DNA from: Candidatus Moranbacteria bacterium GW2011_GWC2_40_12
GTDB taxonomy: Bacteria > Patescibacteriota > Minisyncoccia > Moranbacterales > UBA11712
DNA: 64,000 nucleotides
Assembly (NCBI GenBank): GCA_000995965.1
Contig: LBYD01000003.1
Coordinates: forward strand, 17,713 to 81,712
Direction of reading: 5' to 3'
Part shown: positions 12,413 through 32,117 of the stretch, in pieces
Layout of the letters: every line of letters starts with the position of its first letter
How positions within the stretch are numbered: the first letter of the stretch is position 1
Made by a program: the position numbers and the translations under genes
Notes under the pieces: model-generated
Seen by the model: only the letters and a program-made list of their open reading frames with translations
The model's database searches: none
What the model was told of the DNA's origin: nothing

Positions 12413-12432
12413 AATATTTCAAAATCCTTTGT

Positions 12433-12504
12433 AGCCTCTAGGGGAATCGAACCCCTCTTACTAGGATGAGAACCTAGCGTCCTAGCCGATAGACGAAGAG
12501 GCCA
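12433..12504 (-). tRNA. tRNA-Glu (anticodon CUC)
   Basis: Cloverleaf: acceptor GGCCUCU/AGAGGCU, D-arm GUCU..GGAC, anticodon loop UUCUCAU, T-arm AGGGGUUCGAUUCCCCU, discriminator A. No encoded CCA. Confidence 0.8.
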
Positions 12505-20272: not shown

Positions 20273-20728
20273 ATGTGCCAAAAAATTTTTTGGAACCTAT
20301 GCAAGAAGTATCCTGTTATTCAGCAATTTTCTAAATTTGTCGTGATCGGAGTAGTTAATACCGGCGTTGATTTTCTCATTCTGAACTTGGAAATGTTTTT
20401 GACCGGCATATCAAAAGGCCCGTATATGCTGGTGCAAAATGCTGTTTCTTTTTCCATAGCGACAGTAAACAGTTATTTTTTCAACAAATATTGGACCTTT
20501 CAGGACAAATCAAATAAAGACAAGGGGAAAAAATTCTCGCAATTTATCGGCGTCAGTATTGTCGGCGTAGCCATCAACAGCTTGATTGTTTTCTCGATAA
20601 CGACATATGTTCCGCCAATGTTTGGCATCAGCAGCGTTCTTTGGGCCAATCTCGCCAAAGTCGCCGCTACCGGAATTTCCCTTATCTGGAATTTTGTCGG
20701 CTACAAATTTTGGGTGTTCAAGAAATAG
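20273..20728 (+). CDS. GtrA-family membrane protein (polysaccharide-synthesis associated)
   Basis: 151 aa with four TM helices. Carries VVIGVVNTGVDFLILNL and a C-terminal NFVGYKFWVFKK motif. Confidence 0.85.
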   Translation: MCQKIFWNLCKKYPVIQQFSKFVVIGVVNTGVDFLILNLEMFLTGISKGPYMLVQNAVSFSIATVNSYFFNKYWTFQDKSNKDKGKKFSQFIGVSIVGVAINSLIVFSITTYVPPMFGISSVLWANLAKVAATGISLIWNFVGYKFWVFKK

Positions 20729-20732
20729 CTAA

Positions 20733-20826
20733 AAGTTCGACTTTAAAGCTTGGCTTTGAGAAATTCCAAAAGGTTCGACCTTGAGGAATTTAAAGCGACA
20801 GCGAAAAAGGGAAAGGTCGAACCTTG
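20733..20826. repeat. three copies of a 13-nt palindrome AAGGTTCGACCTT (third copy inverted) at ~38-bp spacing
   Basis: aagttcgactt at ~20735, aaggttcgacctt at ~20772, aaggtcgaacctt at ~20809. They lie in a convergent 3' intergenic region. Confidence 0.4.
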
Positions 20827-20953
20827 AAAGATAATTGGAATTTGTAAAAAAATTGATTTAACAAGAATCAAGCGCCAAACGCTTTTTTTGTTGTGCAAAG
20901 CAGAATACACCAGTAATCTAGTTTACTGGTGTGAAATATTCTTGCAAGTATAG

Positions 20954-20981
20954 AAAAAGGGGCAATTCGCGAATCGCCCCT
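20954..20981 (-). terminator. rho-independent terminator for the 21017..21355 gene
   Basis: Hairpin ggggcaattcgcgaatcgcccc. On the minus strand it is followed by uuuuucu. Confidence 0.5.
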
Positions 20982-21016
20982 GGTTAAAATTAAGTTCTAA
21001 TTGTAGCCGACTAACA

Positions 21017-21355
21017 CTATTGGTGTAAGTCTTTGACATACAGCCGGAATCCGCCTCCCCATGCCGACCATTGCTCGAGGCTGATAGTATTCTTGGGATT
21101 TATGACCTCCTTGAGTTCCTCGAGTTCTTGGGGATCAAGCTCAAAGCTAGCTTCGCCAAGAAAACCACATTTGGGGTGCTTGAACACGATTTTGCCGTTT
21201 TCAAACACGATATCAGCCGTTCCGTCCGTAAACAGCGCCTTGGGAAAAGTCGCACAAAATTCTATCGATTCTGTGTGCGGCTTGGCGCTTAACTTCACGC
21301 CGTCAATCCTGCCGTCGCCATTCTTTGTCACTTCAAAGACAATTTCGTAGTTCAC
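21017..21355 (-). CDS. hypothetical protein
   Basis: 112-aa ORF with a GTG start and its own terminator. No motif recognised. Confidence 0.5.
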   Translation of the reverse strand: MNYEIVFEVTKNGDGRIDGVKLSAKPHTESIEFCATFPKALFTDGTADIVFENGKIVFKHPKCGFLGEASFELDPQELEELKEVINPKNTISLEQWSAWGGGFRLYVKDLHQ

Positions 21356-21422
21356 AGCCTTCCTCCTTCCTCGATTTTTGCTTCAAAACAAATTATCATC
21401 TAATAGAGATTGTGTCAATATT

Positions 21423-21471
21423 TTTGAATTTTGAATTGTGATTTTGATTTTTGACTTTTGAGTTTTGAATT
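21423..21471. repeat. short heptad-repeat element (TTGAATT/TTGATTT variant) upstream of dnaX
   Basis: tttgaat tttgaat tgtgatt ttgattt ttgactt ttgagtt ttgaatt. Confidence 0.5.
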
Positions 21472-21487
21472 CATATAATGAATCAGT

Positions 21488-23104
21488 ATGAGCACCACCC
21501 TTTACCGAAAATACCGCCCGGCGACTTTTTCTGAAGTTATCGGGCAAAAGCACGTTGTGCAAACTTTGAAAAATTCCATAAAATCCGGCCGCATCGGGCA
21601 GGCTTATCTTTTTGCGGGCCCGCGGGGAACCGGAAAGACTTCGATTGCCCGAATTTTCGCAAAAACCATCAACTGCGCCGCTGACTTGGAAACTAAGTTT
21701 CCAAGTGGCGAACCCTGTCTCAAATGCATCCCATGCAAAAATATTCTTGACGGACGCGCGCTGGACATCATCGAAATTGACGCCGCTTCCCACACGGGAG
21801 TGGATAATATTCGGGAACTCAAAGAAACGGTTCAGCTCCCGCCATCCGCGCTGAAATACAAAGTATACATCATTGATGAAGTCCACATGCTCTCCGGTGG
21901 AGCATTCAATGCGCTTTTGAAAACTTTGGAAGAACCGCCGGCACACGTTATTTTCATTTTGGCGACGACCGAAGTCCACAAAATTCCGGAAACAATTCTT
22001 TCCCGCGTCCAACGGTTTAATTTCACCCGGCTCACCGTTGAAGAAATAACCAGCCGGCTCGAGGATCTGGCAAAACTCGAAAAAGTCAAAGTGGACCGCG
22101 AAGCACTCGAAATCATCGCCACGAGCTCCGAAGGCGGAATGCGGAACGCCGAAAGCCTTCTCGGACAAATCATCGCTCTCGAAGACAAAAAAATCACCAC
22201 CAAAGAAGTGGAGTTTCTTCTCGGGACAATTTCCGAGAAAGAACTGTCTGATTTTGTCGGCGCGATCATTGAAAAAAACATTCCTGAATCTTTTTCAAAA
22301 ATCAGTAAATTGCGGGAATCAGGAATCGATTTCAAAAATTTCGGAAAGTCACTCTTAAACTATCTTCGCCAAATGCTTGTTCTCAAAATAAACCCGGAAC
22401 TTGGAAAAAAATTGTCCTATGAACTGACAAAAGAGAGACTCAAACAGATAAATGACCAGATCAATAATATTGAACTTTCCGAAATTTTGGATCTGATAAA
22501 CACGCTTCAGGAAAATACTGAAAAATTCCGCAACAGTCCCATTCCCCAGTTATTCTTGGAAGTAAGCCTCGCGAAAACGGTTTGCAGACGTCCAGCGCCT
22601 GCAAATACGGCTGCAACACCTGCTAGCTCCAAAAATGAAACTGCTTTGGCCGCGCTTTTGCAAGTTGAGCTTTCAGCCAAGAAAAAAGAAATTGCTTCAA
22701 AAAATGACAAGCCGGAAGAGACAGATGCGAAATTCAGAAATAAGAACGTCAATAATCCCGATGAAGACTTCGGCCTCATTCTTTCCCGTTGGCTGGATAT
22801 CATCGAATCTCTGAAAATTTACAATCATTCCCTCTCTTCAGTGCTTAAAATGTCCCAACCGATGCTGATTGACGGAAAATATCTGATTCTCCGGACAAAA
22901 TATTCTTTCTACAATGACAAAATCTCCGAAACCCAGAACCGGTTGACAATTGAAAAAGCGATTGATAAGATAACCGGCGTTGTTTTGCGGCTAAAAGCCA
23001 TCACGGAAAAAGATTTTTCTTCGCAGTTTCCGGATTTCAAGGAGAAGAAAAGTTTGATCCAAGAAGCGGTCGACATATTCGGCGGCAAGATAGTAAAGGA
23101 ATAG
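21488..23104 (+). CDS. dnaX: DNA polymerase III subunit gamma/tau
   Basis: Carries AGPRGTGKTSIARIFAK (Walker A), the Zn module CxxC...C, a DEVHML Walker B and SRVQRF. Confidence 0.95.
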   Translation: MSTTLYRKYRPATFSEVIGQKHVVQTLKNSIKSGRIGQAYLFAGPRGTGKTSIARIFAKTINCAADLETKFPSGEPCLKCIPCKNILDGRALDIIEIDAASHTGVDNIRELKETVQLPPSALKYKVYIIDEVHMLSGGAFNALLKTLEEPPAHVIFILATTEVHKIPETILSRVQRFNFTRLTVEEITSRLEDLAKLEKVKVDREALEIIATSSEGGMRNAESLLGQIIALEDKKITTKEVEFLLGTISEKELSDFVGAIIEKNIPESFSKISKLRESGIDFKNFGKSLLNYLRQMLVLKINPELGKKLSYELTKERLKQINDQINNIELSEILDLINTLQENTEKFRNSPIPQLFLEVSLAKTVCRRPAPANTAATPASSKNETALAALLQVELSAKKKEIASKNDKPEETDAKFRNKNVNNPDEDFGLILSRWLDIIESLKIYNHSLSSVLKMSQPMLIDGKYLILRTKYSFYNDKISETQNRLTIEKAIDKITGVVLRLKAITEKDFSSQFPDFKEKKSLIQEAVDIFGGKIVKE

Positions 23105-23111
23105 ACACTGG

Positions 23112-23218
23112 AGCGTAATCCCGATTGCATCGGGATAAGGCATCCCGATTTTATCGGGACATTCGTGGGTTCGTCAGGTCATTCGACCTGACGCCCGGTC
23201 GGATGACCGGGCGAATCC
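23112..23218. repeat. array of four consecutive GC-rich hairpins; contains a 14-nt copy of the tRNA-Gln variable-loop/T-arm segment
   Basis: atcccgattgcatcgggat, tcccgattttatcggga, cgtcaggtcattcgacctgacg, cccggtcggatgaccggg. The segment cattcgtgggttcg at 23166-79 is identical to tRNA-Gln positions 44-57. A related hairpin pair lies at 31925-31978. Confidence 0.5.
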
Positions 23219-23233
23219 AAAAATACAATTAAT

Positions 23234-23501
23234 ATGCACTATATATATTCTGTTTCTTTTAAACAGGGATTTATACAAAGGGCGAACTGATGACCTTAGA
23301 AGACGCATCGAGGAACATAGACGAGGCAAAGTTAAATCAACGAGAAATTATTTACCAGTCAAGCTTATTCACTATGAAGCCTATCTCGATAGGAAGGACG
23401 CCGAAAGAAGAGAAACATTTCTAAAAACAACGGAAGGAAGAAGGTTGTTAAAGCAACAGTTAAAAGAATCATTAATAAAATTGAACATCATTAAAAACTA
23501 G
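23234..23501 (+). pseudogene. GIY-YIG nuclease family protein, frameshifted (about 88 aa if restored)
   Basis: Frame A reads MHYIYSVSFKQGF, then frame B reads LYKGRTDDLRRRIEEHRRGKVKSTRNYLPVKLIHYEAYLDRKDAERRETFLK... . Joining across a 1-nt slip in a T-run near 23270 gives the canonical GIY..YxGxTxDLxxRxxxH...E motif order. Confidence 0.6.
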
Positions 23502-23515
23502 TTTTTTCGTAAAGC

Positions 23516-23587
23516 TGGGGCGTCGCCAAGTGGTAAGGCAGGGGCCTTTGAAGCCCCCATTCGTGGGTTCGAATCCTACCGCCCCAG
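23516..23587 (+). tRNA. tRNA-Gln (anticodon UUG)
   Basis: U1-A72 first pair and G73 discriminator. D-arm UCGCCAAGUGGUAAGGCA and anticodon loop CUUUGAA. Near-identical in arm sequences to E. coli tRNA-Gln. No encoded CCA. Confidence 0.85.
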
Positions 23588-23595
23588 CTTTGCGC

Positions 23596-23657
23596 GAAAT
23601 GACTTCTGGGACAGTCCCGATGAAATCGGGATTTATCGGGGTTCGAATCCCTGTCCC
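23596..23657 (+). other. tRNA-like element with intact acceptor/T-arm and genomically encoded CCA but aberrant D/anticodon region
   Basis: Acceptor UGCGCGA/UCCCGCA with one mismatch, again U1-A72 and G73. T-arm CGGGGUUCGAAUCCCUG, then GCAGCCA. The internal region folds as the hairpin cccgatgaaatcggg instead of an anticodon arm. Confidence 0.4.
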
Positions 23658-23737
23658 GCAGCCAAATATTGACAAAAACCCTTCCATTCGCTAGGATTCT
23701 CCTAGCTTTTTATTTTATAGACAGGAGGTTTGGGAGG

Positions 23738-23920
23738 ATGAGCGCACAAAAAAAAGGATATCTGATTAGTGGAGAAAAGACGGAACAAGCCAAGCAGGAA
23801 ATTGCCGCAATCCTACAGAATCTCAAAAACGACACTGGCCTGGCCGTCGAAGCCATCACTGTGAAACATCGCGAGGGCAAAGTGGACCGCATCCACTTCC
23901 AACCCCTCGGCGCCGCTTAG
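23738..23920 (+). CDS. small hypothetical protein (60 aa) with strong SD
   Basis: aggaggtttgggagg immediately precedes the ATG. Followed by the terminator at 23947. The track ORF 23669 is an N-terminal over-extension. Confidence 0.5.
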   Translation: MSAQKKGYLISGEKTEQAKQEIAAILQNLKNDTGLAVEAITVKHREGKVDRIHFQPLGAA

Positions 23921-23946
23921 CCTGCGCCCCTGCCACTATCATTTCC

Positions 23947-23980
23947 CCACCGGCTTGCAGCTAGCCGGTGGCTTTTTTTA
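23947..23980 (+). terminator. rho-independent terminator
   Basis: ccaccggcttgcagctagccggtgg hairpin followed by cttttttta. Confidence 0.6.
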
Positions 23981-24093
23981 TCCAAAATAAAAAGTGGTCA
24001 ATTGCATCCACGTGGACAAATTTGACTACCTCGAAAAAATGGCTAAAAAAATATTTAAAAAACACCCCTCGGCGGTTTTCCGCTTTGGGGTGC

Positions 24094-24666
24094 TCATTTT
24101 TCGCAGGAATTGTGCTTGGCTAAAATTTCTGCGAAAGTGTGAATTTGATGGATGTCTCCATCGAGATGCAGCGTCAGAAATTCTGTATCTGGCCTGACCT
24201 CGGGCATGGCCGAAAGAAATGTTCGGCAATTGCCTCAGGGAAGCAGGGTTGGGTGCAGAAGACCGCTCTTGTGATCCTCTTGCGGCTGGCCGACAATCAC
24301 AACGCCGACAATCAATTCATACCCGGCATGACGCGCAGCTTGAGCAGCAACGGTTTCAGCGCACAAATTTGGCCCATCAGCCACCGGTTTCATATTCGAT
24401 CCCCTGAATATCTTATAAAAATCTTCGATATAATAGGGCTGCGAATTGAAAGCATAAAGCGCGCATCCTACGCAAAAATTCCTGTAGGACATAGCGCAAG
24501 TAGCCGCCATTCTTCTGGCCTCATCGATCAGATACTCGGCAATTTGCCAAAATGCGGGAAGATGAAGATTCTGCATTTCAAAAGCTTTCTCTTCTTCAGA
24601 TAATTCCCTCCAGCGTCTGCGCCGCTCAATGAGTTTTTTATAAGCTTCGACATCCGGTCCGTACAT
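24094..24666 (-). CDS. cytidine deaminase-like protein interrupted by an in-frame TGA at the second zinc-ligand Cys position (pseudogene or recoding)
   Basis: The track ORF 24235..24666 contains AMSYRNFCVGCAL (cf. Cdd APYSKFKVGAAL) and CAETVAAQAA (cf. CAERTAL). Immediately after the TGA the same frame continues GNCRTFLSAM...EFLTLHLDGDIHQIHTFAEIL, matching the Cdd PCGACRQ...VLTNL...ELLP tail. Together that is 190 aa. Confidence 0.55.
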
Positions 24667-24883
24667 CTTCCCTCCTCACCTCCTTTTTTTGTTGATTTTT
24701 CGGACTTCGCAATTTATAATACGTCGCCGGATTTGTCAATAGGCGTAAAAAAACCGAAAATAAATCTTTGGAAAAATAATTAATCCGGTCAATCCGATTT
24801 AAGGACTATCCTTGACTATAATCATAAAAAGAATTACGTAGCTAGTTACGTAATTCTTGAATACTTGAAAATAGTTGCCAGCC

Positions 24884-25813
24884 TTACAGCCCGTATTTCT
24901 TGATCAGTTTTTTGTAAGCCTTGGCCTGTTTTTTTGTGTAGGTCCCGTCTTCAATGCTGTTCATTATTTCCCAATATTTCCGCGAATCTTTCCAGTCGCT
25001 TTTCGCTTTCAAGGTTTTTCCATCGGAAAGGACCGTGATAAGATAAGGATCTTCGTCTTTTTGAGAGCCCTCGAAAGTAATCATCTTCCTGTAGTTCGGC
25101 TGAATGATGCAATAACCGGTGTCGCGAAAATCGTATTCCGGGGCGCATTTCACTCCAGCGACTTCGTGATTCGGCGAAAGAAAAACAATTTTCGCCGTGC
25201 CATATCCGAGCTCTTTCAAAAGGTAAACAATCAAGGACGATTTTTCGCTGCAGATTCCTGAATTTTCAAAAAGCGTTTCGTATGGATAGCGGGATCCGTG
25301 TCCCCGTCCGCTGTCGATGATCTCCGTGCCGGTTGATTTGTTGTAATCATAATCGATATTTTGGACAAGACTTGCAGCCGCCCGCACCCGGTCGCCGGAT
25401 TTTTTGATTTTCTTGTTGAGCCATCGCACCAGCGGCGCCAAAGCCTCCCTCTGATCGGAACGCCCCAATAAGCGGTCATTGTAGCAATCGGCCAGAGTCG
25501 GATATCCCTGGCAGTTGTAATCGGGAAGTGCGAAAATTGTCTGATAGACCGAAGAATCAGTCGGCACTTTATAATTTTTCTTTTTCCCGTTGACCACCGC
25601 TTTCACCTGCTGCTTGCCGTCAAAGGCGGCGCCGGCAGGAAGAGCAAACGATAAAACAAGACCAATCGCGACAATTTTTGTTTTGAGCCTGCCCGAAATG
25701 CTTTGATTGCTTTCTTTTCTTGGCATATCTTTGTTTTTTTGATTTATTTTTTTGTGCCCGGATATTTTCCCGCATTTCAAAGCAGGCGGGCATATTTTTA
25801 TTTTAGTTTTCAT
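24884..25813 (-). CDS. exported transglutaminase-like cysteine protease-fold protein
   Basis: N-terminal hydrophobic segment IVAIGLVLSFALPAGAA. Cys/His pair: ...ENSGICSEKSSLIVYLLKELGY and ...SPNHEVAGVKC, with Cys-His in the order of the transglutaminase-like core. Confidence 0.5.
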   Translation of the reverse strand: MKTKIKICPPALKCGKISGHKKINQKNKDMPRKESNQSISGRLKTKIVAIGLVLSFALPAGAAFDGKQQVKAVVNGKKKNYKVPTDSSVYQTIFALPDYNCQGYPTLADCYNDRLLGRSDQREALAPLVRWLNKKIKKSGDRVRAAASLVQNIDYDYNKSTGTEIIDSGRGHGSRYPYETLFENSGICSEKSSLIVYLLKELGYGTAKIVFLSPNHEVAGVKCAPEYDFRDTGYCIIQPNYRKMITFEGSQKDEDPYLITVLSDGKTLKAKSDWKDSRKYWEIMNSIEDGTYTKKQAKAYKKLIKKYGL

Positions 25814-25866
25814 TATTATACCATGAATGGTATAATTCAGCCACTAAGAGGAACCTGAGAAAAATA

Positions 25867-26130
25867 GTGAAAAGAAATAATTCGTCCGGCTATATCCTTG
25901 TTGTTCTTCTGGTGACAGTTCTTCTTGTCGCTGTTTTTTCTGTTTATCTTATGAATAAGCTCTATTTCAAACAGTCCGATCGGTTGGAAGAAAACGGCCT
26001 TCCCCAAAGCGATATCAACCAGCCTGCCAACGTTCCCAACGCCCAAAACCAGGTTGATGCTGTCAGAAGACAAATGAATGAAATTCAGAAAGATCAAAGC
26101 AAGAAATTGAACGACTCAATGCTTAAATAA
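25867..26130 (+). CDS. small membrane-anchored hypothetical protein
   Basis: 87 aa with a GTG start, a single N-terminal TM helix and a Q/N-rich tail. Confidence 0.45.
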   Translation: MKRNNSSGYILVVLLVTVLLVAVFSVYLMNKLYFKQSDRLEENGLPQSDINQPANVPNAQNQVDAVRRQMNEIQKDQSKKLNDSMLK

Positions 26131-31868: not shown

Positions 31869-31924
31869 AAAAAGCTCACTCCAGCATACGAGTATACCGA
31901 AAGCCAATATTTTGTATCCTTAAC

Positions 31925-31978
31925 AGGAATCGCCCGGTCATCCGACCGGGCGTCCCATCGGATGACGGGACGAACCTA
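31925..31978. repeat. pair of GC-rich hairpins related to the 23112-23218 array
   Basis: cccggtcatccgaccggg is the reverse complement of the 23190 copy. tcccatcggatgacggga follows. Confidence 0.5.
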
Positions 31979-32016: not shown

Positions 32017-32045
32017 ATTTTAATTTCCCTGCCCGAATTTGCTTG

Positions 32046-32117
32046 TGCCCTCGATAGGAATCGAACCTATATCACGAGATCCGGAATCTCGCGTCCTATC
32101 CATTGAACGACGAGGGC
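32046..32117 (-). tRNA. tRNA-Arg (anticodon CCG)
   Basis: Cloverleaf: GCCCUCG/CGAGGGC acceptor, D-arm GUUC..GGAC, anticodon loop UUCCGGA, T-arm AUAGGUUCGAUUCCUAU, discriminator A. Confidence 0.9.

Follow-up and report, generated by a model that had tools for sequence, protein, structure and literature searches.

This article concerns a 64,000-nt stretch of DNA from a Candidatus Moranbacteria genome (contig LBYD01000003.1), called the window throughout, and in particular the locus in it where a tRNA-Gln(UUG) gene follows dnaX. On balance, we think that a small, selfish, homing-type element has invaded this locus, and that it belongs to a family spread over many lineages of the Patescibacteria, or candidate phyla radiation (CPR). 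The element itself probably consists of a stand-alone GIY-YIG nuclease gene of ~260 nt (84–89 amino acids, UPF0213-like) and a palindromic hairpin pair (HH) of 40 nt, co-oriented with the tRNA, and its insertion would be kept neutral by the duplication of part of the tRNA gene. The copy in the window is, to judge from its letters, old and decaying: the D and anticodon arms of its displaced tRNA copy have been replaced by hairpins, and the ATG of its nuclease gene stands out of frame, apparently through contraction of a TA repeat.

The genome belongs to the CPR, and the best homologues of the DnaX protein encoded in the window (72–84% identity) are found in Candidatus Moranbacteria and in other metagenome-assembled genomes (MAGs) of the Patescibacteria/CPR. 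Three ordinary tRNA genes were recognized in the window by ARAGORN and Rfam, namely Glu (12431–12503, minus strand), Gln(UUG) (23516–23588, plus strand), and Arg(CCG) (32045–32117, minus strand). When Rfam was applied to both the Gln and the Arg locus, at gathering thresholds and at E ≤ 10, only the three ordinary tRNAs were significant, while matches to CRISPR-DR9, mir-341, ncr952, L10-leader, and SAM-II stayed below threshold and were judged to be due to chance.

Outside the window, related loci were collected in two scans. The genome scan was an exact search for the 22-mer CGCCCGGTCGGATGACCGGGCG with one genome per species, and it returned 50 loci. The metagenome scan started from an alignment of seven nuclease proteins and confirmed 273 relatives, from which 80 loci were kept, among them L060, which represents the window organism itself. 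Two gene orders recur in these loci: class A, [5′ copy + HH][nuclease][tRNA], to which the window locus belongs, and class B, [tRNA][nuclease][HH + 3′ copy].

The tRNA-Gln locus of the window

The stretch between dnaX and the intact tRNA-Gln (Table 1) begins, 4 nt past the dnaX stop codon, with a displaced copy of that tRNA, which reads TGGAGCG-TA-[hairpin a]-AAGGCA-[hairpin b]-CATTC-GTGGG-TTCG-[HH, 40 nt]-AATCC and is without a 3′ acceptor strand. An intact tRNA-Gln starts at this same place after dnaX in two relatives (TAA-cac-TGGGGCG in L001 and L004); that is, the pseudo-copy of the window begins exactly at the ancestral tRNA start.

An earlier, sequence-only reading of the locus had listed four hairpins past dnaX, and all four are there (23118–23136, 23143–23159, 23174–23191, and 23192–23213), the first two standing in for parts of the tRNA and the last two making up HH. 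The same reading had placed members of this hairpin family at the Arg locus as well, which is right for HH (31931–31970) and wrong for hairpins a and b, of the CCCGAT kind; the type CCCGAT-NNN-ATCGGG has three occurrences in the window, all at the Gln locus, and among 139 of the loci collected it was seen in the window organism only. Inserted hairpins of the same general kind as hairpin a occupy the D loop of the displaced copies in L017, L025, and L037.

Between hairpin b and HH lie the 14 nt whose exact identity with tRNA-Gln positions 44–57 had already been noticed. The 14-mer CATTCGTGGGTTCG indeed stands at 23160 and again at 23558, and the chance of a second exact copy in 64 kb is estimated at ~5e-4. 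Read in register with the intact gene, this repeat is best described as the best-preserved stretch of the displaced tRNA copy, and hairpins and 14-mer together form one object, a single collinear degenerate copy of tRNA-Gln 1–62.

The copy ends with nucleotides of the T-loop and continues into a short A/T-rich leader; no Shine-Dalgarno-like sequence was found in 23214–23233. The leaders of related elements (AATCCAAATTTG in L141, AGTCCAAATAT in L142) resemble that of the window (AATCCAAA...). Past the nuclease gene, 14 nt after its stop codon, starts the intact tRNA-Gln with U1-A72 and G73, which both ARAGORN and Rfam recovered as it had been described before, and which is identical to the tRNA-Gln of L004 and L140.

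A promoter-like sequence, TTGACA-17-TAAGAT with TG ahead of the second hexamer, was observed at 22943–22971, still within dnaX near its 3′ end and ~140 nt ahead of the displaced copy, and it could drive a transcript of pseudo-tRNA, nuclease, and tRNA-Gln.

Empty sites and recurrence across the CPR

In five relatives of the window organism (L001, L004, L005, L140, and L144) a tRNA-Gln(UUG) follows dnaX and there is no nuclease gene. The DnaX proteins of L001 and L004 are 84% and 79% identical to that of the window, with tRNA-Gln 3–4 nt past the dnaX stop codon in both, and in L005, L140, and L144 a short spacer separates the two genes. The presence/absence polymorphism at a conserved site by which a homing gene is recognized is therefore found here, with the filled site of the window set against five empty ones. 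The earlier suggestion that the locus carries the trace of a small mobile element aimed at tRNA-Gln is borne out by these five relatives, and also by the occurrence of the family at many other tRNAs.

About 29 of the 50 genome-scan loci come from CPR genomes of many classes, the groups with HH being Falkow-, Buchanan-, Doudna-, Uhr-, Moran-, and Magasanikbacteria, Saccharibacteria, Parcubacteria, and Paceibacterota. The flanks of HH in these CPR loci are usually GGTTCG-[hairpin]-[hairpin]-A(A/T/G/C)TCC, i.e., a T-loop split after TTCG, and a few sites are flanked differently or fall within an anticodon loop. A GIY-YIG gene starts ~30–60 nt from HH in 11–12 of the genome-scan loci; ~60% of the HH sites have no adjacent nuclease gene. 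The rest of the 50 loci come from high-GC genomes (Actinobacteria, Proteobacteria, Deinococcota; e.g., L011–L013, L019–L023, L028, and L032–L034), where the 22-mer forms isolated palindromes outside any tRNA context; as traces of the element these were set aside and treated as chance or terminator-like matches.

Some loci were looked at individually. In L047 (Ser-CGA) an upstream segment with tRNA positions 1–57 is 100% identical to the intact tRNA past the nuclease gene, and L017 (Arg-UCU) and L025 (Ser-GGA) have the same layout, except that the D loop of their upstream copy holds one more hairpin built on the same motif. In L037 (Arg-GCG) and L024 (Arg-CCG) the HH lies in the anticodon loop, and L024 is a tandem, [nuclease][partial copy][nuclease][tRNA].

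The metagenomic genes give the same picture at a larger scale. Classification was possible for 69 of them, 49 in class A and 20 in class B, a further 11 being contig-end cases or arrays. In class A, the distance from the nuclease stop codon to the start of the intact tRNA, which has the same orientation, is −40 to +37 nt (median 5), and an upstream segment of the same tRNA was present in 41 of the 47 evaluable loci; 23 of these 41 copies extend over at least 40 nt at 95% identity or more, and identity is often 100% over 55–72 nt. In class B, 16 of 20 loci have the end of the tRNA at −1 to +4 nt before the ATG, and past the stop codon come (G)GGTTCG-HH-A(N)TCC and the tRNA 3′ end. Of the class A loci that could be evaluated, 36 of 47 have HH no farther than 110 nt from the ATG, and 14 of 19 such class B loci have it as well; where the nuclease is present, HH stands ~15–25 nt ahead of the start codon or directly behind the stop codon. 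In class B loci with this close spacing (e.g., L064, L074, L075, L084, and L110) the ATG sometimes shares the A of the tRNA CCA. The start codons of class B imply, as a prediction from gene layout, an mRNA whose 5′ end would be made by tRNA 3′ processing and whose translation would be leaderless.

At least 17 tRNA species are hit. The breakpoints lie in the T-loop, or in anticodon loops that also read TYCG^RA (TCCGAA, TGCGAA, and TTCGAA in Arg; TTCGAAA in Ser-CGA). The HH site is fixed, and the landing point of the nuclease gene is variable; in L135, for instance, the duplicated stretch extends from the T-loop to past the tRNA terminator. The closest nucleases to that of the window are found at tRNA-Gln(CUG) in unrelated genomic contexts (L141, 74% identity; L142; L061), and there the partial copy matches the local tRNA, in L142 with 100% identity along ~55 nt. 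L142 and L144 come from a single genome, whose dnaX-tRNA-Gln(UUG) site is empty. Related nucleases at different tRNAs are thus accompanied by partial copies of the local tRNA, and therefore the duplicated part seems to be made at insertion and not carried along. That the element brings its own tRNA part was considered as a general rule and is ruled out by these locally matching copies, although it may apply to the Arg locus and to a part of the class B loci.

Decay and repeated activity are visible as well. L069 has a second nuclease gene that is internally deleted, and in L029 and many others there is an HH with a partial copy and no nuclease gene. In L061 (1213–2080), a tRNA-Gln(CUG) stands amid two 5′ and two 3′ partial copies with HH and two to three hairpins each, one nuclease gene being left; the 3′ copies repeat a ~39-nt trailer, which indicates repeated invasions from both sides. 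Somewhat apart stands L045 (contig CAZKOU010000055.1, extract 816–1251), where a tRNA-Tyr(GTA) is split at the T-loop by HH and a GIY-YIG gene; it has a repeat of 9 nt only, GGGGGTTCG, with no intact copy on the 2.9-kb contig, and the intron mode of ARAGORN joins its parts.

The hairpin pair

HH lies inside the T-loop palindrome TTCG^AA of the displaced copy and is made of two hairpins, H1 and H2 (Table 1), with CG at both of its junctions and between them. The window has a second HH at 31931–31970, and the 22-mer CGCCCGGTCGGATGACCGGGCG was found twice against an expectation of zero. The consensus over the collected units is GGTT-CG-[YCNN]GTC-ATYC-GAC[NNGR]-CG-[YCNN]GTC-GRAT-GAC[NNGR]-CG-AATC, and it is dyad-symmetric, giving the same reading on both strands. 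For this reason an opposite orientation of HH in class A and class B, which was considered, is ruled out.

Covariation was evaluated on 53 distinct HH units, each chosen to have at least six of seven pairs per stem. The stems are 99% paired, a percentage that is partly built in by this selection; the compensatory variation is not so affected, with changes on both sides in 11 of 14 pairs and 124 double-change cells against 31 in shuffled sets (none of 500 shuffles came as high). When the stem partners are slid against each other, the pairing is lost. Only 3 of 742 stem cells hold a G-U pair, and this near-lack favours, as far as such counts can, a palindrome that pairs on both DNA strands over a structure formed in RNA only. 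In L100 and L133 the three CG dinucleotides are replaced by CA..TG..CA with complementarity kept. Together with the T-loop halves, HH folds as a three-way junction (fold z = −5.9).

No Rfam family matches HH, and its degenerate pattern had no match in 2.9 million viral contigs. A role as terminator was dismissed, with no T-run following HH on either strand. The apical decamers GTCATTCGAC and GTCGRATGAC (window 23178–23187 and 23198–23207) contain the T-loop-like sequences TTCGA and TCGAA, and the hairpins may in this way mimic or multiply the presumed target sequence.

The nuclease gene and its product

The reading frame of the window nuclease was identified with Pfam (PF01541) and is otherwise intact, with the family-invariant residues Y, YKG, R, H, and E all present. 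Its ATG is followed by CAC and a (TA)4T run, and the frame that starts there meets a stop after 18 codons. Searched by tblastn with the family consensus, the downstream frame reaches back to 23241 at 76% identity; it stays open from position 23211 or earlier, with the reading ...IYILFLLNRDLYKG, which matches the N-terminus of the family, that of close relatives being MHYIYILLL in P0272 and MHYVYILLL in P0275 and L061. From this comparison the lesion is most simply described as (TA)4 in place of (TA)5, the expected ancestral sequence being ATGCAC(TA)5TT, which would encode MHYIYIL.

The sequence-only reading had recognized a broken GIY-YIG gene, and it was right about the nuclease and about a defect in the frame; the 1-nt slip that it assumed in a T-run at ~23270 was rejected because tblastn carries the downstream frame back to 23241, and the defect is better read as a 2-nt deficit in the (TA)4 run. 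The lesion is real and no assembly error, because 23080–23700 is 100% identical in four other assemblies of the same organism (L057, L058, L059, and L060) and because the NCBI protein P0271 (MCTIYILF...) is a gene call on this very allele that uses a start other than ATG. With its ATG cut off from an otherwise intact open reading frame (ORF), the window gene may be dead, or it may be expressed from a non-canonical start.

The protein is a single GIY-YIG domain, 84–89 amino acids long in the family, and the window member is 52–74% identical to 37 homologues. Its AlphaFold2 model (pLDDT 94.9) has one domain with the expected order of strands and helices and no extra domain. In a profile search against the PDB the nearest solved structures were the UPF0213 proteins 1zg2 (BH0048, E = 4.3e-10) and 1ywl (EF2693, E = 2.6e-8), which were also the top matches of Foldseek, with TM scores of about 0.5 against these NMR models. 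The protein thus has the features of the GIY-YIG superfamily and those of UPF0213 (single domain, ~85–105 amino acids), and neither PADLOC nor PHROGs gave a match for it.

At E ≤ 1e-10 an exhaustive protein search returned 308 clusters at 50% identity, and the named members of the family are CPR proteins, with the exception of one from an Omnitrophica MAG. Databases list them as 'GIY-YIG nuclease family protein', 'putative endonuclease', or, wrongly, 'excinuclease ABC subunit C'. Many called proteins have spurious N-terminal extensions of 25–50 amino acids, the frame staying open through HH and the partial tRNA. Entries with artefacts of one or the other kind include P0271 and P0123–P0137.

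Proposed mechanism and alternative explanations

In the mechanism that we propose, the nuclease would break the DNA of a tRNA gene at TTCG^AA (or TYCG^RA). A 2-nt stagger would fit this cut because CG stands at both junctions of HH, and staggered cuts of 2 nt are typical for GIY-YIG enzymes. The element would then be copied in by repair, the stretch between the cut site and the landing place of the nuclease gene being duplicated, so that one complete tRNA survives and the insertion is neutral. The HH in the leftover copy would destroy the second target site, and it may also be the structured DNA substrate of the nuclease. The gene would probably be co-transcribed with the tRNA, which is proposed because it leaves no room for a promoter of its own, and its message would be freed by RNase P in class A or by tRNA 3′ processing in class B, there as a leaderless mRNA.

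Several points weigh against an invasion of this kind. Cleavage at TTCG^AA, the 2-nt stagger, and the copying by repair are all steps that we infer from sequence. The protein is a catalytic domain only, without the DNA-binding domain that gives long homing targets; the intact tRNA keeps TTCGAA, and self-cleavage is not obviously avoided; and a duplication of variable length fits no established pathway. The ~60% of HH sites without a nuclease, together with three loci that have a nuclease without HH (L120, L124, and L125), indicate that the two parts may be separable. The partial copies of class B mismatch the adjacent tRNA in L063, L071, L088, L110, and L133, the tRNA-Tyr of L045 is split and not duplicated, and the selection of units enters the pairing percentage of HH as noted above.

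Alternatively, HH might be an autonomous or trans-mobilised miniature palindromic element, similar to REP/REPIN or IS200/IS605-PATE sequences, that inserts at TTCG^AA with a 2-bp duplication of CG. The GIY-YIG gene would then be a mobiliser or a frequent neighbour, and the tRNA duplications a matter of survivorship, in that only insertions into redundant tRNA copies persist. The series CG-H1-CG-H2-CG does look like two successive insertions of an 18-nt hairpin with CG duplicated each time, single hairpins of the same motif occur in the D loops of displaced copies (L017, L025, and L037), most HH sites (~60%) lack an adjacent nuclease gene, and the near-lack of G-U and the paired CA..TG..CA variants of L100 and L133 point to a palindrome at the level of DNA. 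We hold this explanation to be unlikely all the same: in the loci examined, HH lies for the most part in DNA derived from tRNA genes, and all the HH units looked at closely are in incomplete tRNA copies, none of them in an intact one; in the window it is not dispersed between genes, with two copies in 64 kb; it stands at a fixed distance from the nuclease gene when there is one; and no transposase of the type that mobilises REPs was seen, a systematic search for it not having been made. Still less credible is an islet of the integrase type whose att site was the 3′ part of tRNA-Gln and whose att remnant would be the 14-nt repeat, which we regard as highly improbable. It is true that tRNA genes are classic integration sites and that a repeat of a tRNA fragment is present. 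The ORF and Pfam survey of 20273–26127 (~3 kb around) gave GtrA, dnaX, a deaminase-like gene, and a transglutaminase-like gene, and no integrase, recombinase, or transposase; the repeat lies upstream of the intact tRNA, within a collinear 5′ copy (1–62) at the ancestral gene position; and the inserted DNA amounts to only about 400 nt, in an architecture that recurs dozens of times with GIY-YIG as the sole cargo. For this reason the earlier picture of a loose set of parts bounded by a 14-nt att-like repeat had to be abandoned: the repeat is what is left of a duplicated 5′ part of the tRNA, no integrase is encoded within ~3 kb, and HH, located in the T-loop, is an integral part of the whole.

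Two further explanations do without mobility, or shift it to the level of RNA. The unit may be a domesticated tRNA-linked operon, in which the nuclease has a host function (e.g., quality control of tRNA or DNA) and the hairpin-bearing, tRNA-derived leader or trailer acts as an RNA for processing, stability, or autoregulation. Such an operon would account for an ORF so close to the tRNA that a promoter would not fit and, in class B, with starts that abut the tRNA 3′ end, for the stable three-way junction formed by HH and the T-loop halves (z = −5.9), and for a well-conserved protein (52–74% identity). We give it little credence in view of its patchy presence at the same site in close relatives (five of them empty), the many different tRNAs hit, the partial copies that are 100% identical over 55–72 nt at many loci and indicate recent events, the tandem arrays and internally deleted copies, the decay of the window copy, and the near-absence of G-U pairs from HH, which would be unusual for a structure of RNA only. 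If, instead, HH or the whole unit were an insert in the tRNA that is excised or spanned in the transcript, in the manner of a bacterial T-loop intron or a split tRNA, the interrupted tRNA-Tyr of L045, with its 9-nt repeat and its parts joined by ARAGORN in intron mode, would find a ready explanation. We hold this to be very unlikely, as an intact tRNA stands beside the interrupted copy in the window and in 69 of the 80 other loci, the interrupted copies are usually truncated and could not be spliced into a tRNA, and Rfam gave no group I or group II signature at the gathering threshold or at E ≤ 10. Even the contig of L045 is 2.9 kb only, and another tRNA-Tyr may exist elsewhere in that genome.

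An invasion by a selfish, homing-type nuclease gene remains our preferred explanation of the window locus. It may be taken one step further, to a new class of mobile elements in which a minimal, structure-guided GIY-YIG nuclease would cut the loops of tRNA genes (at TTCG^AA, possibly in DNA folded as a cloverleaf), the 18-nt hairpins would be a mobile, immunity, or recognition module, and in some hosts (the tRNA-Tyr of L045) the unit would split the only copy of a tRNA and have to be excised or spanned in the transcript, as a bacterial T-loop intron or a split tRNA. This combination is speculative, and we hold it to be improbable. In the full-text literature, from which subscription journals are mostly absent, GIY-YIG genes of the CPR accompanied by partly duplicated tRNAs or by hairpins in the T-loop were not found to be described, and an earlier description is possible.

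The downstream relic and the Arg locus

Directly after the intact tRNA-Gln follows an old tRNA relic with a T-arm-like element and CCA at about 23608–23664, which the sequence-only reading had taken for a tRNA-like element with an encoded CCA. T-arm-like sequence and CCA are both there; the CCA is not conserved, and no tRNA-like model is significant. ARAGORN makes no call in the relic, and in Rfam its best match is one of 17 nt to mascRNA-menRNA (15.6 bits, E = 5.6), with no tRNA, tmRNA, or tRNA-like model significant. The fold is unremarkable (z = −1.6), and the sequence resembles the 3′ end of tRNA-Gln(CUG).

Orthologous relics occur in L004 and L144, and therefore this is an old tRNA remnant, older than the insertion of the nuclease gene. 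The ends of the relics are conserved (xTTTGCGCG... and ...TTCGAATCCCTGTCCC...) and their 3′ tails differ: CAGCAAAAT (..CCCCAGCAAAAT) in L004, GAACAAAAT (..CCCCGAACAAAAT) in L144, and GCAGCCAAAT in the window, CCA not being conserved among them. A functional tRNA mimic, as had been contemplated, does not agree with a sequence that drifts in relatives, with an unconserved CCA that abuts a −35-like TTGACA, or with a fold of z = −1.6. The relic is no tRNA gene and is probably without function. Seen beside its orthologues, its CCA is fortuitous, and the third CCCGAT hairpin has been acquired in the window.

The promoter-like sequence that starts 5 nt past the CCA (Table 1) would serve the downstream gene of 60 amino acids (23738–23920), and AAAT(G/A)TTGACAAAAA near it is kept in L004. 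In L144, the sequence ATTCCGGGATCGCC at 2793–2812, between dnaX and tRNA-Gln(UUG), is like the 5′ start of tRNA-Gln(CUG), TTCCGGGATCGTC, and may be another tRNA relic at this hotspot. Farther downstream in the window, the A/T-rich intergenic stretch 24006–24056 gave a weak match to the SAM-II riboswitch (25.3 bits against a gathering threshold of 44, E = 0.03), which is probably due to chance.

The Arg locus is best understood as two further relics without nuclease genes. One is an orphan HH in a 3′ fragment of the resident ('type 1') tRNA-Arg(CCG); the other is the type 1 gene itself, split after the anticodon (TTCCG^GA) by a 110-nt insert that is a different, intact ('type 2') tRNA-Arg(CCG) with its flanks (Table 1). 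These flanks are imperfect inverted sequences of each other (CCTGC..GAATTTG and CAAATTC..GCAGG). Type 1 stands alone beside uvrC in L005, and type 2 stands alone beside uvrC in L144. From these comparisons the locus looks like an intermediate in the replacement of one tRNA gene by another. All traces of the element family in the window are degenerate, as one would predict for a selfish endonuclease gene near the end of its life cycle.

Table 1. Features of the Gln and Arg loci (positions in the window)
Feature	Position	Strand	Basis or remarks
dnaX (DNA polymerase III gamma/tau)	21488–23104	+	ORF, stop 23102–23104; homologues 72–84% identical; anchor gene in synteny
Displaced, truncated, remodelled 5′ copy of tRNA-Gln(UUG) positions 1–62	23109–23218	+	Collinear with tRNA-Gln
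Hairpin a, ATCCCGAT-TGC-ATCGGGAT	23118–23136	+	Takes the place of the D-arm 5′ strand and loop in the displaced copy
Hairpin b, TCCCGAT-TTT-ATCGGGA	23143–23159	+	17 nt for the 17-nt anticodon arm of the displaced copy; by-eye alignment to tRNA-Gln
14 nt identical to tRNA-Gln 44–57	23160–23173	+	Variable loop, 5′ T-stem, first T-loop half (..GGTTCG)
HH, palindromic hairpin pair, 40 nt	23174–23213	+	Inside T-loop palindrome TTCG^AA of the displaced copy
H1, TCAGGTC-ATTC-GACCTGA	23174–23191	+	First hairpin of HH
H2, CGCCCGGTC-GGAT-GACCGGGCG	23192–23213	+	Second hairpin of HH
AATCC (T-loop 58–62 of the displaced copy) and 15-nt A/T-rich leader AAAAATACAATTAAT	23214–23233	+	Sequence
ATG (23234–23236), CAC, (TA)4T run (23240–23248)	23234–23248	+	ATG out of frame with the nuclease by a 2-nt deficit
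Stand-alone GIY-YIG nuclease frame, 86 codons and stop	23241–23501	+	Pfam PF01541, E = 8e-12
Intact tRNA-Gln(UUG)	23516–23588	+	ARAGORN; Rfam 62.3 bits; U1-A72, G73
Old tRNA relic	23589–23664	+	GGGACAG, third CCCGAT hairpin (23615–23631), T arm CGGGG-TTCGAAT-CCCTG, then TCCCGCAG-CCA
Promoter-like TTGACA-17-TAGGAT	23669–23697	+	Consensus match only
Orphan HH site, AGGTTCG-[HH 31931–31970]-ATTCCTGTTAAGGAT	31916–31977	−	3′ fragment of resident tRNA-Arg(CCG), compared with tRNA-Arg of L005; no nuclease gene
Resident ('type 1') tRNA-Arg(CCG), split after the anticodon	31992–32173	−	Type that stands alone beside uvrC in L005
Type 1, 5′ half	32173–32137	−	
Type 1, degenerate 3′ half	32027–31992	−	
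Intact ('type 2') tRNA-Arg(CCG) in 110-nt insert	32117–32045/6	−	ARAGORN, comparison
Flanks of the insert	32136–32118 and 32045–32028	−	

Implications

CPR genomes are very small, and in five relatives a single tRNA-Gln stands at the dnaX site. Neutrality by the partial duplication of a tRNA would be a new solution to a problem that homing endonucleases have otherwise solved with introns and inteins. The element would explain tRNA pseudogenes, "tRNA-like" relics, and nested or replaced tRNA genes, including both odd loci of the window, and also mis-annotations such as 'excinuclease ABC subunit C', N-terminal extensions, and non-ATG starts. The 85-amino-acid nuclease is a candidate for a compact nuclease with specificity for sequence or structure, given its apparent preference for TTCG^AA or for hairpins. 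As for L045, if this is the only tRNA-Tyr of its genome, removal at the RNA level or a split tRNA would be needed.

Comparison with known systems

Among systems that interrupt RNA genes, the archaeal tRNA introns and split tRNAs are those in which tRNA genes are interrupted at loops, including the T-loop. L045 resembles them, whereas the CPR element differs in being bacterial, in usually having an intact copy alongside, and in the truncation of the interrupted copies; a bulge-helix-bulge motif was not seen in it, no search aimed at one having been made. The 'fractured genes' of Dassa et al. (2009), in which a homing endonuclease gene reportedly lies between the halves of a split intein, are alike in that a free-standing endonuclease sits in an essential gene and is made neutral by an accessory device. 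There, neutrality is achieved by protein trans-splicing, whereas in the CPR element it would be achieved by duplication, at the DNA level, of part of an RNA gene.

Prophages and islands that use a tyrosine integrase to target tRNA genes likewise keep the tRNA functional by means of a copy of the displaced segment, and leave a partial copy as a direct repeat. In contrast to them, the CPR element has no integrase, its cargo is about 0.3 kb, and the crossover lies at the centre of the T-loop or anticodon loop; moreover, the duplicated part can be the 5′ one (class A), stands upstream, and matches the local tRNA, instead of forming a repeat of the tRNA 3′ end downstream. The palindromes of REP/REPIN-RAYT and IS200/IS605 systems share with HH the GC-rich, inverted hairpin pairs with conserved apical parts, the covarying stems, and pairing at the level of DNA. 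HH differs from them in its sites, mostly tRNA-derived and of the TTCG^AA type, in being accompanied by GIY-YIG and not by a Y1 transposase, and in having only two copies in 64 kb; no RAYT-directed search was made.

By sequence and fold, the best matches of the nuclease are UPF0213/YhbQ-type proteins (1zg2, BH0048; 1ywl, EF2693), which are of the same size and have a single domain. The CPR subfamily is set apart from them by its strict context next to a tRNA with HH, and the match in sequence is modest (E = 4e-10 by profile). We know of no function or genomic syntax assigned to UPF0213 proteins.

The element departs from its nearest systems in having no DNA-binding domain and no integrase, and the two copies of HH seen in the 64-kb window both lie in tRNA fragments. 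In I-TevI, the cut site and the point of gene insertion are a short distance apart, in which it is like the CPR element. To our knowledge, neither the partial duplication of the target tRNA nor a conserved hairpin pair at the presumed cut site is found in Seg or Tev elements. The CPR element also differs from these in being an ~85-amino-acid catalytic domain, in its chromosomal location, and in the lack of any match for HH among viral contigs or for the protein in PHROGs. Shared with I-TevI and with the free-standing GIY-YIG genes of T4-like phages (Seg family) are the catalytic domain, the placement of a selfish gene in or near conserved genes, and the presence/absence polymorphism, and one member of the Seg family, SegB, lies in the tRNA gene cluster (PMC13096335). 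By analogy, then, the element of the window and its relatives across the CPR appear to act most like a free-standing GIY-YIG homing endonuclease gene of the T4 Seg kind.

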